DNA of 54,273 nt from NCBI GenBank assembly GCA_964417855.1, contig CAYQJB010000001.1, forward strand, positions 358,709 through 412,981, written 5' to 3'. The notes under the pieces were generated by a model. That model was not told the origin of the DNA and ran no database searches. It saw nothing but the letters and a program-made list of their open reading frames with translations. Both the position numbers and the translations under genes were made by a program. This DNA comes from an uncultured Candidatus Saccharibacteria bacterium. Lineage in GTDB: Bacteria; Patescibacteriota; Minisyncoccia; Phycocordibacterales; CAIZLB01. Positions 39,437-54,273 of the stretch are shown here, in pieces (position 1 is the stretch's first letter; each line of letters begins with the position of its first letter).

Positions 39437-40252
39437 ATGGAAACAACAAAAATCTCTTTATTTAAAGGCAAGAAAATAAGAAAAACACTATTTCAAAATG
39501 AGTGGTGGTTTTCTGTTACGGATGTAATTCTGGCTCTTACTGATAGTGCAGATTCCCGTGATTATTGGTATAGAATGAAAATAAGGGTTAAAGAAGAAGG
39601 CGGTTTTCAACTGTCGACAATTTGTCGACAGTTGAAATTACCAGCCGAAGATGGAAGGATGCGAGAAACCGATTGTACTGATACTGAAGGTATTTTTCGT
39701 ATTATTCAATCAATTCCATCAATAAAAGCTGAGCCATTTAAGCGGTGGCTTGCAAAAGTTGGTTATGAGCGAATACAAGAAATAGAAAATCCTGAATTGG
39801 CAACTAAAAGAACGAGAACACTTTACAAACTAAAGGGATACTCAGAGGATTGGATAGAAAAAAGAATGCGAGGGATTGCTATTCGAGGAGAACTGACAGA
39901 CGAATGGAAAAATAGAGGGGCAAATGAGCAAAAGGATTATGAAATCTTGACCGCTGAAATATCTAAAGCTACTTTTGGTGTTACGCCAAATGAATACAAA
40001 AAAGTAAAAGGGCTTAAGCGAGAAAATCTGCGTGATCATATGGATGATTTTGAGTTGATTTTTACAATGCTGGGTGAACGTTCAACCACAGAAATTCATA
40101 AAATTGAAAATTCAAAAGGAGTTTTAAAACTAGCAAAAGATGCCAAACGGGGTGGGGGAATTGCTGGTGTTGCTAAGAAACAATTAGAAAAAGAAATTGG
40201 TAGATCTGTAGTATCAAAAGACAATTTCCTACCAAAGAAAAAAACACCATAA
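39437..40252 (+). CDS. Bro-N domain protein (DinD / phage-antirepressor-like)
   Basis: N-terminal Bro-N signature (F...EWWFSVTDVILAL); start 4 nt after the rnhB stop; contains a 33-bp perfect palindrome at 39605-39637. Confidence 0.55.
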   Translation: METTKISLFKGKKIRKTLFQNEWWFSVTDVILALTDSADSRDYWYRMKIRVKEEGGFQLSTICRQLKLPAEDGRMRETDCTDTEGIFRIIQSIPSIKAEPFKRWLAKVGYERIQEIENPELATKRTRTLYKLKGYSEDWIEKRMRGIAIRGELTDEWKNRGANEQKDYEILTAEISKATFGVTPNEYKKVKGLKRENLRDHMDDFELIFTMLGERSTTEIHKIENSKGVLKLAKDAKRGGGIAGVAKKQLEKEIGRSVVSKDNFLPKKKTP

Positions 40253-40665: not shown

Positions 40666-41580
40666 ATGGCAAACAGACATTTATTAAGGTCAGTCGTACT
40701 ACAATCACTCTTTGAGTGGGATTTTAGAAACGTCGACAATAATTTAATCGGCGACATAGTGGTCAGAAATGCAGAAGAATTCGCTCCGGGAATGACGGAT
40801 TTTACATTCGCTAAGAAATTAGCTGATGGTGTTGTAAAAAAGAAGGCAGATTTAGATATGATTATTGAAAAAGCTGCTCCAGAGTGGCCTATTGATAAAA
40901 TCGCAAATGTAGACAGAAATGTACTTCGTTTAGGTCTTTATGAGTTGATTTTTGCTGATAGATCAGAAGTTCCAGCAAAGGTTGCAATCAATGAATCTAT
41001 TGAGCTTGCAAAGACTTATGGAGGAGAGACGTCTGGAAAGTTTGTTAACGGGGTACTTGGTGCTGTTTATAAAGAACTTGGAGAGCCTGGAAAGGATGAT
41101 GTTAGAGCTCCAAAAAAGAATAAGGATATTCCGTATGAGGAAATGCCTATCAAAACTCTGGCTGGTGGTGTGGTTTACTCAAGACATGAAGGAGAAATTT
41201 ATCTTGCATTAGTGCATGATGTTTTTGGACACTGGACATTATCAAAGGGCGGAATTGATTCATCAAAGGATATAAAGATTGCAGCAGCAGAAAAGATTGA
41301 GGAAGAGATTGGTGTTCCTGTAACTGTAATGGATGAGCTTGCAAGCAATGAATATATTGCATCTCATCCTGAGGATGGAAAGATAAGAAAGCAGGTCGTG
41401 TATTTTTTGGCTGAAGCTGAATACAAACCACTGAAACTTGAAGAAGGAAAAGGGGGGTTGGACAAAGTTCAATGGTTTAATGTAAAGGAAATTTTATCCC
41501 TGAATTTCTATAACGATATTATGCCAATAATCGTTAAGGCCCTGGGTAAGCTTTCCAATAAAGGGGAAGTTGTGGAATAA
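40666..41580 (+). CDS. nusB: transcription antitermination factor NusB fused to a C-terminal Nudix-fold domain
   Basis: residues 1-140 are NusB-like (RSVVLQSLFEWDF...KFVNGVLGAV); residues 160-300 carry a Nudix-fold pattern (GHWTLSKGG...AAAEKIEEEIGV) with a degenerate Nudix box. Confidence 0.6.
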   Translation: MANRHLLRSVVLQSLFEWDFRNVDNNLIGDIVVRNAEEFAPGMTDFTFAKKLADGVVKKKADLDMIIEKAAPEWPIDKIANVDRNVLRLGLYELIFADRSEVPAKVAINESIELAKTYGGETSGKFVNGVLGAVYKELGEPGKDDVRAPKKNKDIPYEEMPIKTLAGGVVYSRHEGEIYLALVHDVFGHWTLSKGGIDSSKDIKIAAAEKIEEEIGVPVTVMDELASNEYIASHPEDGKIRKQVVYFLAEAEYKPLKLEEGKGGLDKVQWFNVKEILSLNFYNDIMPIIVKALGKLSNKGEVVE

Positions 41581-41591
41581 ACTAATAAATA

Positions 41592-41625
41592 TTTGGGGTC
41601 AGGCACCATGGTGCCTGACCCCAAA
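41592..41625. promoter_or_regulatory. 34-bp GC-rich perfect palindrome in the rnc 5' region
   Basis: TTTGGGGTCAGGCACCA|TGGTGCCTGACCCCAAA; lies between the nusB-Nudix stop (41580) and the rnc ATG (41635). Confidence 0.5.
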
Positions 41626-41634
41626 CAAACAAAA

Positions 41635-42330
41635 ATGACTAATGCAAATATTTCAGAATTTGAAGAATCGATAGGGATTTCTTTTATCGATAAAAATTTA
41701 ATAAAAAAGGCTTTTACACACAGATCTTATTTGAATGAAAATAAAAGCCTAAAATTGGGACACAATGAAAGATTGGAGTTCTTGGGTGATGCTGTGCTTG
41801 AGCTTGTTGTTACAGACTTTTTATATAAAAAATTTCCTCAGAAAAATGAGGGAGAATTAACTGCACTTCGCTCAGCTCTTGTTAAAGCAGAGACCTTGGC
41901 AGCTGCTGCTGAACTTGCTGGAATGAACGCATATTTATTGCTTTCAAAAGGTGAATCAAAGGATACAGGACGAGCTAGACAGTATATTCTAGCAAACACT
42001 TTTGAATCAGTGGTTGGAGCAATTTACCTAGATCAGGGATATGACATCGTTGCAAAATTTATTGCAGATCAACTATTTGCACAAATTGACGATATTATTG
42101 AGAATAAAACTTTTATCGATTCAAAAAGTAGATTCCAAGAAATGGCGCAAGAAAAAACTGGTTTTACACCATCATACAAATTAATTAAAGAAGTTGGTCC
42201 GGATCACAACAAAATTTTCACAGTCGCAGTTACTGTTGGTGAAGAAACTATTACAGAAGGTGAGGGCAAGTCAAAACAAGAAGCCGAACAAATGGCTGCA
42301 GAGAAGGCTCTTGAGATTAAGGCTTGGTAG
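41635..42330 (+). CDS. rnc: ribonuclease III
   Basis: ERLEFLGDAVLELVVTDFLY RNase III signature plus C-terminal dsRBD; first ATG after the palindrome is 41635, and the ORF-track start at 41593 is a TTG inside the palindrome. Confidence 0.85.
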   Translation: MTNANISEFEESIGISFIDKNLIKKAFTHRSYLNENKSLKLGHNERLEFLGDAVLELVVTDFLYKKFPQKNEGELTALRSALVKAETLAAAAELAGMNAYLLLSKGESKDTGRARQYILANTFESVVGAIYLDQGYDIVAKFIADQLFAQIDDIIENKTFIDSKSRFQEMAQEKTGFTPSYKLIKEVGPDHNKIFTVAVTVGEETITEGEGKSKQEAEQMAAEKALEIKAW

Positions 42331-43271: not shown

Positions 43272-43458
43272 ATATAGTGTTGCATATAATATAAAAAGGT
43301 AGATAAATAAAATCCAAAGATTATATATGGTACCTGTGGATAACTTCTACAGATGAAATTGAGTTGAACCTGTTATGCATTTAATGTTTGTGGAGGCATA
43401 CTAATTTAGTATATTATATGTTATATTATATGAACTTGAGTACATATTGATAATAATA

Positions 43459-45819
43459 ATGCATTTAAAATCGCTAGAAATTAATGGTTTCAAATCTTTT
43501 GCTAAAAAAGCGAATCTAGTTTTTAATACACCAATTACGTCTATTGTGGGTCCAAATGGTTCCGGAAAATCAAACGCTGCTGAGGCTTTTAAATTTGTTC
43601 TAGGAGAGCAATCTATTAAATCAATGCGTGGAAAGAAAGGTGAGGACATGATTTTTAATGGGGGAAAAGATATTCCTCGTGCAAACAGAGCTTCTGTTAA
43701 ACTTGTTTTTAGTAACCTTCCAAATGGAGCTAAGGGACGTGGAATTGCCAGGGCGACTGATTCATCTAGTTTGGGAATTATTTCAGGAAATGAAGGTCGT
43801 CTTTTTAGTATAGATTTTGATGAAGTTTCAATTGAGCGTGTAGTTCACAGAGATGGTGTCAATGAATATTTTTTAAATGGCACACAGGTTAGGCTTAAAG
43901 ACATTTTAGAATTACTTGCAAATGCAAATATTGGTTCATCGGGACATCATATAATTTCACAGGGTGAAGCTGATAGATTACTTTCTTCACTTCCTCGTGA
44001 AAGAAAAGATATGATAGAGGATGCTCTTGGTCTAAAAATATATCAATATAAGAAAGAAGAAAGCCAAAAGAGATTAGAGAAGACTGCAATTCATATGAAG
44101 GAAGTTGAATCATTGCGCCGTGAAATTGCACCGCACATTAGATTTTTGAAGAAACAGGTAGAGAAAGTTGAAAGAGCTGTTGCTTTGCGTGAAGAGTTAG
44201 CTGAAAAGTATAAGGAATATTTTGCATACGAGACAGAATATTTGAAGAAAGAAAAAGAGCAAATTTCAAGGGATGTTAATGAACCGTCTGCTGAGCTTGA
44301 AGATTTGAAGAAAGACCTAGAAAAACATAGAGCAATTTTGGATTTGGTGGAAAAACAGAATAAAGAAAATAGTAAGACATCAGAACTATTGGAGTTGGAT
44401 GCTGAAATGAGAAAAACTCGTGCAGAAAAAGACTCTTGCATGCGTGAGATTGGAAGACTGGAAGGCGAGATGTCGTATTTGAAGAGGACAATTGAGAAGA
44501 AAATTAGGGATGCAAATGAGTCCAATACTAAACAAATTTATTTAAGAGAAGTTGAGCAATTGAGTAAAGGTATTGATTCTAAGATTTCAGTAGCGATGGA
44601 GGCTGTTTCTTCTGAGAATTTTAACGATGTTAAGTCAGCGCTTGCAGAAATTAGAAAAGATTTTACAGAATTTTTGGAGCATCATAAAAATACAGAATCA
44701 TTAAATATTGAAAATGAGGAAGCTGAAATTTTAAAAATCACAGATACTGTAAAGGATTTTGAATTTAGATTAACTACTTTTGCAGAAGTTGAATCTGGGC
44801 AAAATTCTAGATACATAGAAATAAAAGCAGAAATTGAAAAGGACAAAGATAAAAACGTAGAAAGTGAAAAGGCCGTCCTTGTTATAATGTCACGCCAAAA
44901 TGAACTGCATACTCAAATAGAGGCTGTTAGATCAAGAGAAAGCAGGCTTAAAATTGAGCAAGATGACTACAATAGAGATATTCAGGAAGCTATTGCTTTG
45001 ATTGGGCGTTCGGCCGTTTCTTATGATGATTTTCCTTTACCAATGGAATCTGCTATTGAGAATAGACATGTTCAGGTTGAGAGAAGACGCGCACTGGAGA
45101 AAATAAAAATAAGACTTGAGGAAGCGGGGGGAGCAGGGGGGAATGAAATAATACAAGAATATAAGGAAGCAGAGGAAAGAGATGCTTTTTTTGTAAAAGA
45201 ATTGGAGGATTTAGAGAAGTCTATTGTCGCACTTAATATGATAATTGATGAGTTGAATGACAAGTTAAATAAGCTATTTAAGGATGGAATAAGTAAGATA
45301 AATCAGGAATTTAATAGATTTTTTATGTTGATGTTTGGTGGTGGCTCAGCATCACTTGAAGTAGTTAAGGAGGTAAAGAAAAAGAGAAGAAAGATTGCGG
45401 ATGATGAGTTGTCATCATTGGCTGAAATAGTTGGCGAGGAGTCTGAAGAAGAGCCAGAAGTTGAAGAGGGAATTGATATTAGCGTTGCTTTGCCACATAA
45501 ACGCACAAAAGGTTTAATGATGCTCTCTGGAGGAGAGCGTGCACTAACCTCCATTGCACTTTTGTTTGCAATGTCACAGGTTAATCCACCTCCGTTTATT
45601 ATTCTAGATGAAACAGACGCTGCGCTTGATGAGGCTAATTCAAGAAAATACGGAGATATGATTGAAGCGCTTTCTGAGCATTCGCAATTGATTTTAATTA
45701 CCCATAACAGAGAGACAATGTCACGTGCCGGTGTTATTTATGGAGTTACTATGGATTCTGGGGGATATTCTAAATTACTTTCAATTGCATTTGATGTGGC
45801 ACAGGAGATGGCAAAATAA
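43459..45819 (+). CDS. smc: SMC-family chromosome segregation ATPase (short form)
   Basis: N-terminal FKSF...GPNGSGKSN Walker A; long coiled-coil; C-terminal LSGGERALTSIALLFA signature and D-loop (ILDETDAALD); 786 aa from the first ATG. Confidence 0.75.
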   Translation: MHLKSLEINGFKSFAKKANLVFNTPITSIVGPNGSGKSNAAEAFKFVLGEQSIKSMRGKKGEDMIFNGGKDIPRANRASVKLVFSNLPNGAKGRGIARATDSSSLGIISGNEGRLFSIDFDEVSIERVVHRDGVNEYFLNGTQVRLKDILELLANANIGSSGHHIISQGEADRLLSSLPRERKDMIEDALGLKIYQYKKEESQKRLEKTAIHMKEVESLRREIAPHIRFLKKQVEKVERAVALREELAEKYKEYFAYETEYLKKEKEQISRDVNEPSAELEDLKKDLEKHRAILDLVEKQNKENSKTSELLELDAEMRKTRAEKDSCMREIGRLEGEMSYLKRTIEKKIRDANESNTKQIYLREVEQLSKGIDSKISVAMEAVSSENFNDVKSALAEIRKDFTEFLEHHKNTESLNIENEEAEILKITDTVKDFEFRLTTFAEVESGQNSRYIEIKAEIEKDKDKNVESEKAVLVIMSRQNELHTQIEAVRSRESRLKIEQDDYNRDIQEAIALIGRSAVSYDDFPLPMESAIENRHVQVERRRALEKIKIRLEEAGGAGGNEIIQEYKEAEERDAFFVKELEDLEKSIVALNMIIDELNDKLNKLFKDGISKINQEFNRFFMLMFGGGSASLEVVKEVKKKRRKIADDELSSLAEIVGEESEEEPEVEEGIDISVALPHKRTKGLMMLSGGERALTSIALLFAMSQVNPPPFIILDETDAALDEANSRKYGDMIEALSEHSQLILITHNRETMSRAGVIYGVTMDSGGYSKLLSIAFDVAQEMAK

Positions 45820-46412: not shown

Positions 46413-47237
46413 ATGAACGCAAGAAAACTATTTTCAACTAAGACCTTTGCAGTCTTTCTTCTTTTTTGGGTATTGTTAAGCTGGGGCATCTCCCACGCTG
46501 TCAACAATGACATCAAATCTGCAACCACAAACTTCAGTGCAACAGGTATTGTGTCTGATGTTTCTGAATTTTCTATGACAATAGAAAATGCAAAAGGATC
46601 TACTCAATCATCAGATGGAACATACAATCTAAATCTAGATTATCTTAAGAAAGTAGAAACAAGTGATTATGGTCCACTTGCATTAACTGATATCAAAGCG
46701 GGGGATAAGGTTGTTGTACAAGGATTAACTAATGGATATGCATTCTACATCAAGAGAATTGTTTCCTTTACATCTGTTGCTACCAAGGCTGATGATGAGA
46801 ACGCAACAAGTACAGCCACAACAACTACATCAACAACAACTGAAGTTGTGTCACCTGTGATTCCAGCTGAATCGACAAGTACAGCCACAACAACTACATC
46901 AACAACAACTGAAGTTGTGTCACCTGTGATTCCAGCTGAATCGACAAGTACAGCAACAACAGCTCCAGCTGCAACCGAAGAGACAGCATCGTCTACTCCG
47001 ACGATTATTGAAACAATAACCAATACTGTTGGAGGGGCAGTTGGTGATGTTATTGATAAAGTAACAGAAGCAGTTCAAAATGTGGTGGATATATTAAATG
47101 GACCGGATGCACCCGATGCAACCTTGCCTAAGGAAAATATTGTACCAGCTGTAAGTACTTCACCATCAGTTGAGCCGCCAACACAATCTACAGATTCAGG
47201 AGCGATCATTAATTCTGAAGCTGTCCCTGTAAACTAG
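46413..47237 (+). CDS. secreted Thr/Ser-rich repeat protein
   Basis: signal peptide from the ATG at 46413 (MNARKLFSTK...SHA); contains a perfect 69-bp tandem repeat encoding TSTATTTTSTTTEVVSPVIPAES twice; ORF-track start at 46377 is a GTG. Confidence 0.6.
   Translation: MNARKLFSTKTFAVFLLFWVLLSWGISHAVNNDIKSATTNFSATGIVSDVSEFSMTIENAKGSTQSSDGTYNLNLDYLKKVETSDYGPLALTDIKAGDKVVVQGLTNGYAFYIKRIVSFTSVATKADDENATSTATTTTSTTTEVVSPVIPAESTSTATTTTSTTTEVVSPVIPAESTSTATTAPAATEETASSTPTIIETITNTVGGAVGDVIDKVTEAVQNVVDILNGPDAPDATLPKENIVPAVSTSPSVEPPTQSTDSGAIINSEAVPVN
46806..46961 (+). repeat. perfect 69-bp tandem repeat (2 full copies plus 18-nt partial third) inside a CDS
   Basis: 46806-46874 and 46875-46943 are identical; 46944-46961 restarts the unit with one substitution. 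Confidence 0.9.
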
Positions 47238-47267
47238 GTATTAATTTATATTATAATAATGCAAAAT

Positions 47268-50200
47268 AAATTCATAAACAGAGCTCGCAATAAAAAAAAT
47301 ATATTCCTACTCGGGATATTTTTTATGTTTGCAATAGTTCTAATCCCCAGCGTTTCAGAAGCATCAATGTTGCTTCCTAAAGATATTGGAACTGGAGCAA
47401 CTGGAGAAATCAATACTTGTGGCGAATTGATTTCTGGTGAATATACACTAACTTCAAATGTTACAGCAGAAGGTACATCCTCTTGTTTTATCATCAGTGG
47501 AGATAATGTGAAAATAAACGGCGGAGCGTTTACAATATCGGGAACAGGAGAAGTTGCGATTGATGCAAGAGTACGAGATGTTGTTGCAACAAGTTCTCTT
47601 GTAAAAGGTGCAAATGGATATACAAACATAATTATCAACGACCTTAACATCACAGGTTTTACTGTAGGTATTAATGCAAGTGGTAATAGTGATGACGGTG
47701 TCATTGGAGTAGATGAATCACCAAGATCGGGGAACGGTGGAACTGGAGGTGATGTCTTAATATCATACTCGTCAATAGGTAGTATTTTTACAAATGGAGG
47801 TGATAGTACGACAGCCTCTGCTGGCGCAGGAGGAAGTCTTTATGTATTGGACACGGATTTAGATATTTCAAATAGAACAATATCTCTTTTAGGGGGTACA
47901 GGGACAAACGGAAAGGAACCTGATGGAGGTTTGACTCTCAAGTACACTGGCGCACTAACAAAGACAAATCTTACCCTAAGTTCCCTGAACTTCTTCAATA
48001 TATTTATTAGTAACGATACCCAAACTCCAACCACATCTTTTGGAATATATGCTGGAGGTACCTGGCCAATTTTACCAGGGGCAGTGTCCTCTTGTGGAAC
48101 CCTGCTTGGGCCTGGAATATTCACACTGTCAGGAAATGTAACTTCTACCTCATCTACTTGTTTTTTGATTTCTTCAAATAATGTAACAATCGACGGCGTT
48201 GGACATTCTGTCATTGCAAGTGATGCTTCTACTACTGCGTACGCAATAGTGGCGGGGAATTATGATTCAACAACAATTGCTTCAACTACAGTTTTGGGGT
48301 TTGTAAAATACATTAACTCAAGTAGTTCAGTTACAATTTCGGGTGGTAATGTCGATCTATCAAATAAATACATAAAAGCTGATACCCTTACTGTTTTGGC
48401 AGGGACTCTTGATGTTACAAATACAATTTTTGCAGTACGTATTTTAAATCTTAACTACGGCGCTTCAATTACAGGGGACTCTACAGCAACCACAGAAGGT
48501 CCTACTTCTCTCAAAATAAATAATTTTGATTACGGATTAAAGAATACGGAGTCTTTAGTTACTAATGGTTGGGTAGCTAGAAGTTCGGTAAAAAATTGGT
48601 ACTCAATTACTTCGTCTTTAGATGGAAAAAAACTAGCGGCTGTTGAATACGGAGGTTACATTTACACCTCCACGGACTCTGGTCTAACTTGGGCTTCGAA
48701 TAATAATTCATCAGGAAGTCATAACTGGTCTTCGATTACGTCTGATGCCTCTGGAACAAAACTCGCTGCTACTGAATTTAGTGGTTATGTCTATACCTCA
48801 ACAGACTCAGGCCTAACATGGTCTTCACATAATAATAACAATAATTCTAGCCCTAAATCTTGGACTTCAATAACATCCTCAATTGACGGAACAAAACTAG
48901 CGGCTGTTGAATACGGAGGTTACATTTACACCTCCATGGACTCTGGTCTAACTTGGTCTAGTCGTGCAAGTGATTATCCAACAAGAGATTGGGTGTCAAT
49001 CACCTCATCTACCGATGGTTCAAAACTTGCTGCTGTTGAAAGTAATGGCTCTCTTTATTTTTCTGCAGACTCTGGTCTGACATGGTCTACAAATAATGAG
49101 TCTTCTGGTATTAGACATTGGACTTCAATAGCTTCATCTGCTGATGGTTTAAAATTGGTTGCAGCTGGATTAGAGCCTGTTGCAGGTAATTATACAGGAT
49201 ACATTTACACTTCAACAGACTCAGGCCTAACATGGTCTACAAATAATAATTCTTCTGGATTACACAAATGGCTTTCTGTAACTTCTGACTCATCTGGTGC
49301 AAAGCTTGTTGCTGTGGAAGAAGATGGTTATAGATATACTTCCATAGACTCTGGTCTAACATGGTCTGCAAGTAGTGATTTTGCATCATCAACTCGTGCT
49401 ACTTTGAGTTCATCATTAGACGGATCAAAAGTGGTGGAGGCTGTATATGGTAAAAATATTTACACACACACCGTAGTTCATCCAGACTTTTCAATAAATA
49501 TTTTAACTCCTAATGCTGGAGATAACATTCAGTACTGGCAGTCACCATATATACTATGGGGATCAGCACAAACCTGTTATTATTCATATGATAATTTTTT
49601 ATCAAGTAATAGCGTAAATTGTTTACTTAACGGATCTGATATTCTCAAACCTGCAAGTGCGGGAGATAAAACTTTGTATGTTAGGGGTGTGGATAATCTA
49701 GGTGTTGTAATAAATCGACAGGTAAACTTTCATTATAATAATAAGGATATATTAATTAATGAACCTGCTTTAAGTTCTGAAAAATCAGCTACAATATGGT
49801 TTCCAAACATTAATTACAGTATTTCAAATAAAAGCCTTAAATCATGTTCTTATTCATATAATAATTTTGCTTCAACTACATCCTCAGATTGTTCATTGAA
49901 TGGTTCAGATATTTTACCTCCTACTTCACACGGTTCCAGTACTTTATATATTAAAACTGTTGACCAAAATGATAATGAAAGTTTGGAAAATGTACAGTTT
50001 ATGTATTATTTTGGTTATAGTACAAATATTTCTGCCGATTTTAGCTATTGGAATTCTGTTGCTACATCCTTGGATGGAACAAGGATTGCGGCGATTAGTG
50101 CGGGACTTTACATAAGAATTTCCTCTGACTCTGGGTTGACGTGGAAAAATATTGATGGAAGTAATGGGACAACTAATATGAATGGTCGTGGTTGGTCTAA

Positions 50201-53200
50201 AATTACAGAGTCTTCTGATGGCCAAAAGTTAGCTGTAATTGAAAATAATAATGGTAGTTCTGAAAATGGTTATATATGGACCTCTGCTGACTATGGACAA
50301 ACATGGGTGAAAACCTCCGCAGGTCCACGTAATTGGCAATCAATTGCTTACGACGCACAGGGAGATAAAATTATAGCCAGCACCAATCCAACAAATATAA
50401 ATAATTATTATTTACAATATGTTGGGGCTGGTAATGGACCGTATAATTCGAACGGAGATTATGTTGGGGCTTACGCTTATATGAATTATCTATCTTATGT
50501 AGGTGGTGGCTATGGAGATTTTGACTCATCTGGAAACTATGTTGGATATGGATACTATAGTAGCCAACTTTCTTATGTGGGAGAGAGTGGTCCGTATGAC
50601 TACCAAGGAAATTATATTGGATACGGTGGCATATATAGCTTTGTTGGTTTGGGAGCTGGAGGAGAGTACGATTCATCAGGGGCTTATGTTGGTCCTGATA
50701 CGGGAGACTATGTTTATGTTCCCGCAAACTATAACTATGTGGATGTCTGGGTGCCAGGTGGTGATTACGTAATGTATGGAGATTATTTTGCCGTAGGTGA
50801 TTATGACTATTTTAGTTACAGTGATTATTACGGACCATCAATCTTTGTTTCAACAGACAGTGGTTCGTCATGGACTGAAAATAATACGCTGAGTTCGATG
50901 GATAACTATAGTGGTGTGGCGTTGTCCTCTGATGGACAATTTATGTCGGTAACATCTTCAGGTGGTTATATATGGACCTCAAATGATTATGGGTCAACAT
51001 GGCGTCCTGCTGATGGAAATTCTGGAGGTGCTAATAGTATGTCTGGGAGTAGTTGGGGACAAATAGCCCTTTCTTCAGATGGCTCAATACAGGTTGCAGT
51101 TCCTATGTATGGTGGTTATATCTATGTATCTACAGATTTTGGTATAACATGGATGATGGCAGATGGGTTAAACGGAACGACGGATACGTCTGGACATGAA
51201 TGGAGTTCTGTAACTTCTGACGCTTCTGGAAAAGAAATTACAGCGATAGATTCCCTTAGTGGTTATATTTATTCGTCGCATGACTTTGGTCATACCTGGT
51301 CTGCCGACGGGGGTTCTTCAGGAAAAAAGAACTGGCAGTCTATCGCTTCTTCAGCTGATGGTAAAAAGATTATTGCAGGCACTAACGGTGGTTATATATA
51401 TATACTTGATAAAAGTTCGTCATATGATCCGTCTCTTGTAATTAAAAACCCTATTTCAGACTCTCTTGTGAATAGCTCTAGCTGGACCCCTTCCGTTTTT
51501 TGGGGTTTCAGGAAGACCTTGTGTCAATATTCGTATAATTATTTCGCCTCTACGACAAACGCAGACTGTTCTTTGGGTGGTTCAGACATATTGCCTCCAC
51601 CAACATTGAATTCGAACACTTTGATGGTTAGGACGTACGATTCTTCTAATAATACAAATGTGGTGAAGGCAGCGTTTAATTATTATATTTCAAGCGTCTG
51701 GACATCAAGAGGCTCTGTTGGTTCATGGAGGTCCATTGCCACCTCCGCCGATGGAAAAAAACTAGCGGCATTACAAAATTTTTCTAATCTCGTTTATATC
51801 TCGACAGACTCAGGAATAACTTGGAGTACCGCTGGTCCATATAAGAATTGGGGTTATGTGACAATGTCTGCGGATGGAACAAAAATGGCCGCTACTACTA
51901 TTACCGATGGTTATATCTATACTTCAGCAGACTCTGGTCTGACATGGTCTTCAAATAAAAACTCTTCAGGAGCAGGATCAAATAGGTGGTCAGGCATTGC
52001 CTCCTCCGCTGACGGAACAAAACTTGTTGCGTCTGTAGATGATGGTTGGATTTATACATCAACAGACTCTGGTCTAACATGGTCTACAAATGAAAATTCT
52101 TCAGGTGATAGACGCTACTGGGTAGGCGTTAGTTCTTCAGCTGATGGAACAAAACTTGCAGCTGTTGATGCAAGATTTGACGGTCGTATTTGGATCTCTT
52201 CTGATGCAGGTCTTCATTGGGTACTTAGTAATTCTTCACCGTCAGACTATTGGACTTCAATAGCTTCATCTGCTGATGGAACAAAACTTGTTGCTGCTAT
52301 GCGTTGGGGTTATATTTATACTTCCACAAACTCTGGTGTTCAGTGGTCTTCACATGCTGGCTCCTCAGGCTATCGTCAGTGGAAAAGCGTTGTCTCTTCA
52401 GCTGATGGGATGAATATTGCCGCTACTGCTACTGGAGGATATATTTATATTTCTAATGATGGGGGAGCTACATGGAGCTTGCAAGAATCATCTAGGAGTT
52501 GGTCTGGTGTTTCTATTTCTGCTGATGGAACAAAATTTGCCGCCCTTGCAGAAGGTACAAATATCCTTACATACCAAAGACCCTCTCTCGTGCTTGCTGT
52601 TGACGTACTCCTTCCACAAGCTAGTAATAGTTCGGTCTGGAATTCTATAGTGTCATGGGGAACAGCTAAGTCTTGTTATTATTCATATAATAATTTTACT
52701 TCTACCTCAACAGCAAATTGTTCACTATTAGGATCTGATATTTTACCTCCATCTACTTCTGGAACAAGTACTTTGTACATAAAAGGTGTGGACGCTGGAA
52801 GTACTGTAAAAACAAACTCAGTTACATTTTCATATTCTCCATATTACTGGTGTGGAACTGCTGATTCAATTTGGGCTAACCCAAATAACTGGTACACCAG
52901 TAGTAGTTGTTCTATACGTATCGGCGGAATTCCAGGTCCAAAAAACACTGCAATGCTTGTTGGAAGTATTTCTCCTATAATTAGCAACTCCGCAACTCCA
53001 CTTCCTGCTGTGATAAACTCAACTGGACTGACGGGTGCAGCTAATACACCCGGCGTGGTTTTTTCAGGAAATGCATTTAATACAGCTAAAATAGTTGGTA
53101 ACGCTACATTCAATAGTACTTCATATAACATGGGAGCAGTAAATGGTAATGCAATATTCAATGCGGCCTCAGCCGGTGCATACAATCTTACCGGTTCAAT

Positions 53201-54272
53201 GAAATGGGGAGGAACAGTTTCAGGTTCAATTAAAGGATCCGACGGAATTGATATTATTCACTTAATATTCAATAATTCTTCGACAAACGAAACTACAATT
53301 GAAAATAATATATCCGCTGTATTTAATAATGCCGCATCAAACAATGGAGTAATTAATGGTAATGTAACATTTAATAACAACTCACCGTTCCGTATGGGTA
53401 CAGTAAATGGTACATCAACTCTTAACGGAATGAGTCAAACATTAAATGGAATAAATAATGTACTTAACTTCTTTAAACAAGTTGTGGGTTCTGTTCGCGA
53501 TACTTTGTATTTTGCATCAGGTTCCACACTTAATGTATCAGGTCTGACAACAATTCTTGGAGGAGATGCAAATAGTTTGCTTACATTAAGATCTACAACT
53601 CCAGGAAGTTCAGCAAATATTAGTTTGGGCGCATCTTCAACTTTGAATTACTTACGTATTAAAGATATACACAACACTGGGGTCAATGTAAATGTATCAA
53701 GTCTTACAGTTTATGACGATGGAGGAAACTCCGGTATTACTTTCCCAGTTAATTCATCGATAAGTCAAAGAGGTGGAATCACATCAAGTTATACTCCACC
53801 ATCAATTCCTGTTTCTCACCAACCATACATTCCACCTGTTGTACCCCCAGTAGTTCCACCGATAAATAATAACCCAGCAAATGCCAACGCAGGAGGAGGT
53901 TCAATGTTCTTTGGAAACATAAACGCAACTAACGTAGGAAAGCTTAATCTTGGAAATATCCCCACAGTTAACTTCGGCGGAATTGGAAACAATTTTGGAG
54001 TTTCAACCTTTGTGAACCCTCTTGCGGATTTATTGCAATTGAAGCCGATGGGTACATTCGCACCGCTTCCAAAACTTGACTGGTCAATCAATGTTGACAA
54101 CTTCCTAAACAACTCACTTCCAAAATCATTGGTTGATCTATCTGGCGCTGTTCCATCAATTAGAAAGGAACTATCATCAGCAGACATCAGAAGTGGATAT
54201 GACTTGTATTCAATGAAAGAAAGTCCAATTGATACTCCAACATTGTCTGATCTTGCAAAAGACAAAACAAAA
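47268..54272 (+). CDS. giant secreted beta-helix / BNR(Asp-box)-repeat surface protein, 3'-truncated by the window edge
   Basis: my manual translation from the ATG at 47268 found no in-frame stop through 54272 (at least 2335 codons); absent from the ORF track presumably because it has no stop; signal peptide MQNKFINRARNKKNIFLLGIFFMFAIVLIPSVSEA; N-terminal parallel beta-helix-like repeats; at least 20 repeats of W.SI.SS.DG.KLAAVE.GGYIYTSTDSGLTWS (S-x-D-x-G-x-T-W Asp-box); four Cys modules; Tyr/Gly-rich segment; C-terminal Asn-rich repeats. Confidence 0.8.
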
Positions 54273-54273
54273 C

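Follow-up and report, generated by a model that had tools for sequence, protein, structure and literature searches.

What kind of protein is encoded by a gene that fills the last 7 kb of a bacterial contig, shows no stop codon and yet is missing from the list of open reading frames (ORFs)? The question is raised by a 54,273-nucleotide stretch of contig CAYQJB010000001.1 (hereafter the window, meaning the whole stretch analysed), from a bacterium that belongs to the candidate phyla radiation (CPR, or Patescibacteria). A first, sequence-only reading of the window had described a giant secreted protein of beta-helix and Asp-box repeats and had named host attachment or cell-cell interaction as its candidate role. 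The answer that we favour, with modest confidence and from the architecture of the protein, is that it is probably an adhesin-like surface fibre of about 2465 amino acids (aa), exported through the Sec pathway and tethered at its C-terminus. The protein class itself – beta-helices, BNR propellers and Ig-like domains in an adhesin-type fibre – is ordinary; the new element is the tail module in which the protein ends.

A 7-kb open frame and its missing end

Retranslation of the plus strand from 47268 to 54272 gave 2335 codons and zero stops, as had been claimed, and the ORF list across 47.2-54.3 kb indeed holds only short frames, the longest of 152 aa; the giant gene is missing from it because ORFs that run off an end go unlisted. 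The start first proposed, at 47268, has to be moved three codons in the 5' direction, to the ATG at 47259 (M-Q-N-K-F-I-N...), upstream of which an in-frame TAG lies at 47235, and 2338 codons then fall inside the window. The GC content of the gene (37-40%) is similar to that of the remaining window. An artefactual ORF can be rejected: the frame stays open over 7 kb, has collinear homologues with about 50% identity and recurs with identical sequence in independent assemblies.

That the gene is cut at its 3' end by the window edge was also correct. The same locus was reached in other assemblies through neighbouring genes (the NYN and 105-aa genes), and JGI contig Ga0194052_1001636 (L007), which has 0 mismatches to the window across all 7015 nt of the giant gene, runs 72 nt past the window end, reading ...KDKTK-QPESLIFISIDGKEKQTKLSIDKK. 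When metagenome contigs were scanned with the last 25 nt of L007 for a continuation, a contig from the same sample (L017) was found to overlap it by exactly 127 nt and then to encode 111 residues up to a stop (...LSPIQKLWSWFTK). The same exact 127 nt also terminate L013, the end of a 53.7-kb contig from that sample which carries a different giant gene behind different upstream genes. When two contigs run into a third and overlap it by 127 nt, this marks a junction in a k=127 assembly graph; the truncation is therefore an artefact of the assembly, brought about by paralogues whose 3' ends are nearly identical. Joining L007 to L017 adds the missing 127 aa and yields the length of about 2465 aa. 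Homologues provide an independent prediction that agrees with this length, for the last 148 aa of the window align 123-137 aa ahead of the C-termini of six full-length relatives.

At the other end, the signal peptide that had been proposed is supported. The only hydrophobic segment of the protein spans aa 11-33, with no other transmembrane segment; the n-region is basic (five basic residues in aa 1-35), and a structure model puts a helix at residues 3-28. By the -3/-1 rule, cleavage would follow Ala35 in the sequence S-E-A/S, and this -1 Ala is invariant in 20 homologues (alignment A2). The 14 cysteines of the protein all fall into seven closely spaced local pairs, which would become disulfides outside the cell.

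Propellers, spacers and beta-helices

The domains that follow are collected in Table 1. Asp-box arrays had been recognised in the sequence-only reading, and they stand: the motif [ST]x[DN]xGxxW occurs 18 times, with 16 copies fitting the strict form SxDxGx[TS]W, against 0.22 expected and a maximum of 2 in 1000 shuffles. Its spacing is regular (41-50 aa) and, together with the grouping of the units in three blocks of seven, fits seven-bladed propellers. The underlying blade of about 43 aa (W..I..S.DG..L.A....G.IY.S.D.G.TW) is present in 21 copies, which form three blocks of seven, the final blade of each block being without an Asp-box. The original count of at least 20 units of about 40 aa, all ending in the motif, is therefore right for the blades but slightly too high for motif-ending units, as there are 18 motifs. 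Judging from the repeat count, each closed propeller would have seven blades.

Table 1. Features of the giant gene and its upstream neighbour in window coordinates; aa positions refer to the giant protein
Feature	Position (nt)	Strand	Remarks
Upstream gene, 274-286 aa	46377..47237	+	ends 21 nt before the giant gene
Giant gene	47259..54273	+	5' complete, 3' cut by contig/window end; 2338 of about 2465 codons
Predicted signal peptide, aa 1-35 (MQNKFINRARNKKNIFLLGIFFMFAIVLIPSVSEA/S)	47259..47363	+	contains the protein's one hydrophobic segment
N-terminal right-handed beta-helix module, aa 36-437	47364..48569	+	
Asp-box (BNR) propeller block 1, aa 441-735	48579..49463	+	7 blades, 6 Asp-boxes
Two ~90-aa spacer domains, aa 739-917	49473..50009	+	Cys pairs 773/788, 863/878
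Asp-box propeller block 2, aa 926-1385	50034..51413	+	7 blades, 6 Asp-boxes
Tyr/Gly/Asp-rich insert, aa 1040-1195	50376..50843	+	~156 aa, within the third blade of block 2
Spacer domain 3, aa 1390-1476	51426..51686	+	Cys 1422/1437
Asp-box propeller block 3, aa 1485-1775	51711..52583	+	7 blades, 6 Asp-boxes
Spacer domain 4, aa 1790-1861	52626..52841	+	Cys 1806/1821; modelled in homologue P0010
C-terminal right-handed beta-helix, aa ~1862-2172	52842..53774	+	Cys 1865/1884
Disordered Pro/Asn/Gly-rich linker, aa ~2173-2247 (...PPSIPVSHQPYIPPVVPPVVPPINNNPANANAGGG...)	53775..53999	+	
Tail module start (helical unit), aa 2248-2338	54000..54272	+	first 82 of ~208 profile positions; remainder beyond window

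Scanned segment by segment, the protein passed Pfam gathering scores, which a single scan of its full length did not reach. Block 2 scored 42.1 bits for BNR_6 (PF15899; cut-off 27) and 28.7 for BNR (PF02012; cut-off 27); block 3 reached 31.2 bits for BNR (cut-off 27) and, marginally and in this block only, 35.6 bits against a cut-off of 33 for Sortilin-Vps10 (PF15902), in four short stretches. Block 1 matches the sialidase of PDB entry 7mhu (E=6e-4), a match that rests on the Asp-boxes. A profile of the propeller blocks, compared with the PDB, found a GH74 xyloglucanase (E=2e-8, over 170 aa) and sortilin (~6e-5, over ~60 aa).

GH74 enzymes, the Vps10 domain of sortilin and Ycf48 share with the giant protein the Asp-box S-x-D-x-G-x-T-W at the same place in a blade of about 43 aa. 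The giant protein nonetheless has three separate seven-bladed blocks in a fibre, and neither the ten-bladed Vps10 propeller nor the paired propellers of GH74. Assignment to any of these families can be rejected. The Vps10 architecture of ten blades plus 10CC contrasts with seven-blade blocks followed by two-Cys spacers of about 90 aa; the similarity to GH74 xyloglucanase is confined to the stretch given above, and spacers keep the propellers apart; and the FRIP motif of exo-alpha-sialidases (GH33), sought as [FYW]R[IV]P or RIP, occurs nowhere in the giant protein. The F510_1955 family glycosylhydrolase model (NF045728) gives 75.9 bits against a curated cut-off of 175. Ycf48/PSII_BNR (PF14870) is unlisted for any segment at E up to 1, and the CPR host is non-photosynthetic; some homologues do carry precomputed PF14870 matches and the JGI name 'photosystem II stability/assembly factor-like', but we know of no photosystem in CPR bacteria.

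The four spacers, which lie between and after the propeller blocks, each contain a Cys pair 15 residues apart and form a four-copy repeat at the DNA level (D7; 61-73% identity). A homologous spacer (in homologue P0010) is modelled as a beta-sandwich, with a predicted local distance difference test score (pLDDT) of ~88. For the spacer, Foldseek found only weak Ig/FN3-like matches in the PDB, and for the small domains nothing significant; the Pfam segment scan gave no match for the spacers.

The insert in block 2 consists of about four units of ~25 aa ('SYVGxGxGxYDSSGNYVGYG'), and Y and G account for 34 and 30 of its 156 residues, a composition that we take to resemble that of engineered or antibody binding loops. 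No counterpart was found in 56 homologues or in the PDB, and the insert is identical in a contig from another sample (L009). Diversification of the kind produced by diversity-generating retroelements is unsupported: 40-54 kb of the window contain no template-like repeat, and L009 and L010 show no strain variation.

Parallel beta-helix-like repeats had been expected after the signal peptide, and a beta-helix is indeed found there, with a second one near the C-terminus; structure models show both as three-faced right-handed solenoids of short strands. In the N-terminal module a cap unit with a Cys pair is internally duplicated (C54/C76 and C279/C301). Adhesins are among the best fold matches of both beta-helices (HMW1, EtpA, UpaB, SRRP and PfbA; Awp3b and tapirin). 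At the sequence level, beta-helix families (Beta_helix/PbH1, NosD, pectate lyase) gave no Pfam or NCBIfam match at E up to 1-10, and the beta-helix regions have no PDB match. Diderm beta-helical adhesins (HMW1, EtpA, FHA, UpaB, pertactin) show 10-19% identity only, and the giant protein, unlike them, has no TpsB partner or autotransporter barrel; a CPR host is expected to lack an outer membrane. Membership in the TpsA adhesins (HMW1/FHA/EtpA) is rejected as well, as no NPNL/NPNGI motif is present and the gene is flanked by housekeeping genes or by one for a small secreted protein.

A separate observation concerns the N-terminal cap unit (~50-100 aa; CG.L...GTYTL...CF.I..NN.TIDG.GH.I): in a genome scan (L035-L072), weak relatives of it were seen to open proteins from many DPANN and haloarchaeal genomes, which suggests a beta-helix cap motif common to ultra-small archaea and CPR.

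The same architecture could also belong to a surface-displayed or secreted carbohydrate-active enzyme, a depolymerase that digests envelope polymers of a host or prey, or environmental glycans. The beta-helices would then be lyases or hydrolases (compare pectate lyases and phage tailspikes), and the BNR propellers glycosidase or carbohydrate-binding modules. That the top PDB match of the propeller profile is a GH74 xyloglucanase and the top NCBIfam match a 'glycosylhydrolase' family fits this proposal, and the invariant charged residues E56, D102 and R104 ('AIDAR') of the N-terminal module could form a site. We nevertheless consider it unlikely: no enzyme model reaches its threshold, NF045728 included, no Pfam lyase or hydrolase matches, and the sialidase FRIP motif is missing from the giant protein, while the minimal, near-consensus blades of ~43 aa leave little room for active-site loops and the propellers are set apart by spacers instead of being paired in a cleft of the GH74 type.

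The tail module and the proposed tethering of a surface fibre

After the C-terminal beta-helix and the linker – whose equivalent in the P0010 model has a pLDDT <50 – the protein ends in a module of ~210 aa. Of 63 proteins collected, 29 were found with a profile of 14 such tails to have the module, in every case 0-31 aa before their end. A 21-sequence profile (A5), run against 1.84 billion cluster representatives, matched 274 proteins at E<=1e-3 and 147 at E<=1e-30, and in 142 of 155 proteins the match ends <=5 aa from the C-terminus. The window contains aa 2248-2333 of this match (profile positions 2-82, E=1.7e-26), and the reconstructed protein aa 2248-2464 (positions 2-208, 207.5 bits). In the P0010 model, the tail folds into a small helical unit and a beta-sandwich (pLDDT 80-89), which a short disordered stretch separates from a terminal helix; the end of the reconstructed protein (...KLWSWFTK) is predicted to be such a helix, cationic, Trp-rich and amphipathic. 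Among the last 12 residues of the tails, 3.4 on average are aromatic (background 1.1), and the net charge is +1.7; if the terminal peptide is taken to be helical, its hydrophobic moment comes to 0.58, compared with 0.34 +/- 0.12 for random windows of the same proteins. The N-terminal beta-helix module is present in 46 of 96 complete tail carriers, and >=3 Asp-boxes in 31 of them; the tail is thus a C-terminal module of general use, attached to cargoes of various kinds.

The tail is matched by no model of Pfam or NCBIfam. The curated C-terminal sorting signals in NCBIfam (PEP-CTERM, T9SS CTD, GlyGly-CTERM and others), checked with two complete tails at E up to 10, gave no match, nor did WxL (PF13731) at E up to 10. 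An anchor such as VPATG, which had been considered possible for the then missing end, is not there: the reconstructed protein nowhere contains [LIV]Px[TSA]G and, apart from aa 11-33, lacks any hydrophobic 19-mer, and its end is the family-specific tail module. In the literature, we found no description of the giant-protein family or of the tail module.

Parallels exist, all the same, with known ways of keeping proteins on the cell. A Pro-rich linker followed by a C-terminal module is the order seen in wall-anchored Gram-positive adhesins (PMC5817068). Wall-anchored adhesins of monoderms (LPXTG/MSCRAMM, Lactobacillus reuteri SRRP, Streptococcus pneumoniae PfbA) resemble the giant protein in having an N-terminal Sec signal, multigene families and repeated Ig-like spacers, then a Pro-rich spacer and a C-terminal cell-association element. 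They differ from it in that the giant protein lacks the LPXTG motif, hydrophobic helix and charged tail, has three BNR propellers as its middle and a C-terminal element of ~210 aa, and belongs to a CPR host. A further parallel, on the side of function, is offered by the WxL proteins of Lactobacillales and Bacillales, whose C-terminal module (120-190 aa) carries conserved Trp motifs and keeps varied extracellular proteins on the cell non-covalently and whose genes are clustered with that of a small membrane or secreted partner (PMC5817068). A C-terminal module with Trp motifs, varied extracellular cargoes and a small, here putative, partner gene are common to both; the motif here, however, is terminal and reads W-x-W-F-x-K or Phi-W-x-x-Phi-x-x-W-F, whereas that of WxL is YxxxLTWxLxxxP. 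We tentatively raise the possibility that the tail represents a hitherto unknown kind of surface-retention (or sorting) signal, confined to a Paceibacteria clade and the CPR counterpart of LPXTG, WxL or SLH, and that the partly conserved secreted protein of 286 aa encoded upstream may be its partner.

The proteins that share the tail also bear on what the giant protein is for. Its collinear relatives (2000-3700 aa) share the N-terminal module, propellers, spacers, C-terminal beta-helix and tail. The N-terminal module is found at the N-terminus of about 30 proteins, with 41-57% identity over 370-445 aa; full modules occur in about eight species-representative metagenome-assembled genomes (MAGs), with up to four loci in one genome. 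The paralogue on L013 has four partial beta-helix units and one propeller, and its tail is 88% identical across the last 121 aa. The family is thus multicopy, with conserved ends and variable middles. This argues against another proposal, namely that the giant protein is a structural envelope or S-layer-type protein that forms the outer coat of a CPR cell rather than serving specific attachment. CPR cells imaged by cryo-electron microscopy do carry surface layers, the giant gene sits among housekeeping genes, and its product, a large secreted protein, is rich in Ser/Thr/Asn/Gly, poor in acidic residues and equipped with a putative cell-association module. A genome with several paralogues that differ in their middles, and a tail that is shared by many unrelated cargoes, are nevertheless unlike a single lattice-forming protein, and no SLH or other S-layer family model matches; an S-layer role therefore seems to us improbable. 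Very improbable is that the tail serves as a signal for export or sorting which a dedicated machine recognises and takes off, so that the protein would be set free or linked covalently to something else. In favour of this, the tail occurs strictly at the end and closes with a conserved peptide after a short disordered stretch, much as LPXTG, PEP-CTERM and T9SS C-terminal domains are terminal sorting signals, and a partner gene is partly conserved upstream; but no known sorting-signal model matches the tail, neither an LPXTG-like motif nor a hydrophobic helix after it is present and no candidate processing enzyme was found near the loci examined.

A tethered, adhesin-like fibre accordingly remains our preferred interpretation, and attachment or cell-cell interaction would be its best-supported function, given the architecture. 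Surface adhesin-like proteins are reported to be abundant and essential in cultivated Patescibacteria (PMC11665869). Several points weigh against this interpretation, however. Polysaccharide lyases and hydrolases have beta-helix and BNR folds just as typically, and of 97 complete proteins with the tail a crude test found a strongly hydrophobic N-terminus in only 64. For the C-terminal fold, the sequence modelled was that of homologue P0010, which is 56% identical, and not that of the window protein; the terminal tail helix has a low-confidence model (pLDDT ~50), and the membrane-targeting helices of MinD and FtsA, with which it might be compared, act on the cytoplasmic face. The last 127 aa, moreover, come from L017, outside the window, and as the assembly graph joins this contig to both paralogues, they may belong to the other copy.

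If the protein is such a fibre, it would be exported by the Sec pathway through its cleavable N-terminal signal peptide and be kept on its own cell by the tail module, that is, by the helical unit, the beta-sandwich and the cationic, Trp-rich amphipathic helix, the last most likely lying in the outward face of the membrane or bound to an envelope polymer. The disordered Pro/Asn-rich linker would serve as a wall-spanning spacer, from which there would follow outwards the C-terminal beta-helix, the three propeller-plus-spacer units and, at the tip, the N-terminal beta-helix. Propellers and beta-helices would then bind glycans or proteins of other cells or particles.

Gene neighbourhood, host and significance

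The product of the gene directly upstream has a signal-like N-terminus, a conserved domain of ~100 aa and a Ser/Thr/Pro-rich tail, and no Pfam match. Its homologues lie directly 5' of giant genes, on the same strand, in L013, L023, L026 and L027, and weakly so in L037 and L042, but are absent from seven other strong giant-gene loci; its position would suggest a partnership with the giant gene. Within the upstream gene, a perfect 69-nt tandem duplication at 46806-46943 (family D8) repeats the peptide TSTATTTTSTTTEVVSPVIPAES in the Ser/Thr-rich tail, and L010, from another sample, carries a 263-aa version of the gene, which fits copy-number variation of the 69-nt unit.

The window is otherwise housekeeping DNA, with genes for DnaE, RNase HII, L32, NusB-NUDIX, RNase III and SMC and one tRNA. 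Named relatives of DnaE (58-74% identity) all come from MAGs of Patescibacteria, Parcubacteria or Paceibacterota, and those of the giant protein from the same groups. By these relationships the host is a Paceibacteria-type CPR bacterium, in keeping with the small-celled, host-dependent type that had been supposed.

Some of the other genes have features of their own. Between NusB-NUDIX and RNase III, at 41591-41642, lies a perfect 14-bp GC-rich palindrome (GGGGTCAGGCACCA/TGGTGCCTGACCCC; core about 41595-41622) flanked by A/T runs, which recurs at 95-97% identity in L013:961-1011 and L017:3950-3996, from the same population; it could be an element resembling repetitive extragenic palindromes or a bidirectional terminator-like hairpin. 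Given its location, RNase III probably starts at a downstream ATG and not at the listed TTG 41593. The SMC homologue (43447-45819, +) has 786-790 aa, against ~1180 positions in TIGR02168, and matches in the head domains (profile 2-489 plus the C-terminal end), so that its coiled coil would be greatly reduced in length. NusB and a NUDIX domain form one fused protein (Pfam; 40666-41580), ribosomal protein L32 (40295-40609) carries a Lys/Ala-rich C-terminal extension of ~55 aa, and between RNase HII and L32 lies a Bro-N domain protein (39437-40252, +), of a family typical of phages and mobile elements.

Giant genes are also known from Omnitrophota and other predatory or episymbiotic bacteria, where they exceed 30 kaa (thousand aa) and contain beta-helix and beta-propeller parts (bioRxiv 10.1101/2023.11.21.568195). 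Both those genes and the one described here encode very large secreted multidomain proteins and are split by repeat-driven assembly breaks; the window protein, however, has about 2.5 kaa, lacks SecA-like, peptidase C39 and dockerin parts, and belongs to a different phylum. The gene also illustrates how short-read assembly systematically breaks such genes, since the 3' ends of paralogues are nearly the same.

CPR bacteria account for a sizeable part of bacterial diversity, and an attached life on other cells is assumed for most of them, but hardly anything has been learned about the display of their surface proteins or about the ligands of these. The giant gene offers a fully mapped example of a multicopy family of giant surface proteins in Paceibacteria, and the conserved tail profile, with its 274 cluster representatives, a handle for listing candidate surface proteins and for testing their anchoring. 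Should the tail prove to be a retention or sorting signal, it would mark the surface proteome of these ultra-small bacteria, with the giant gene as one of its cargoes.

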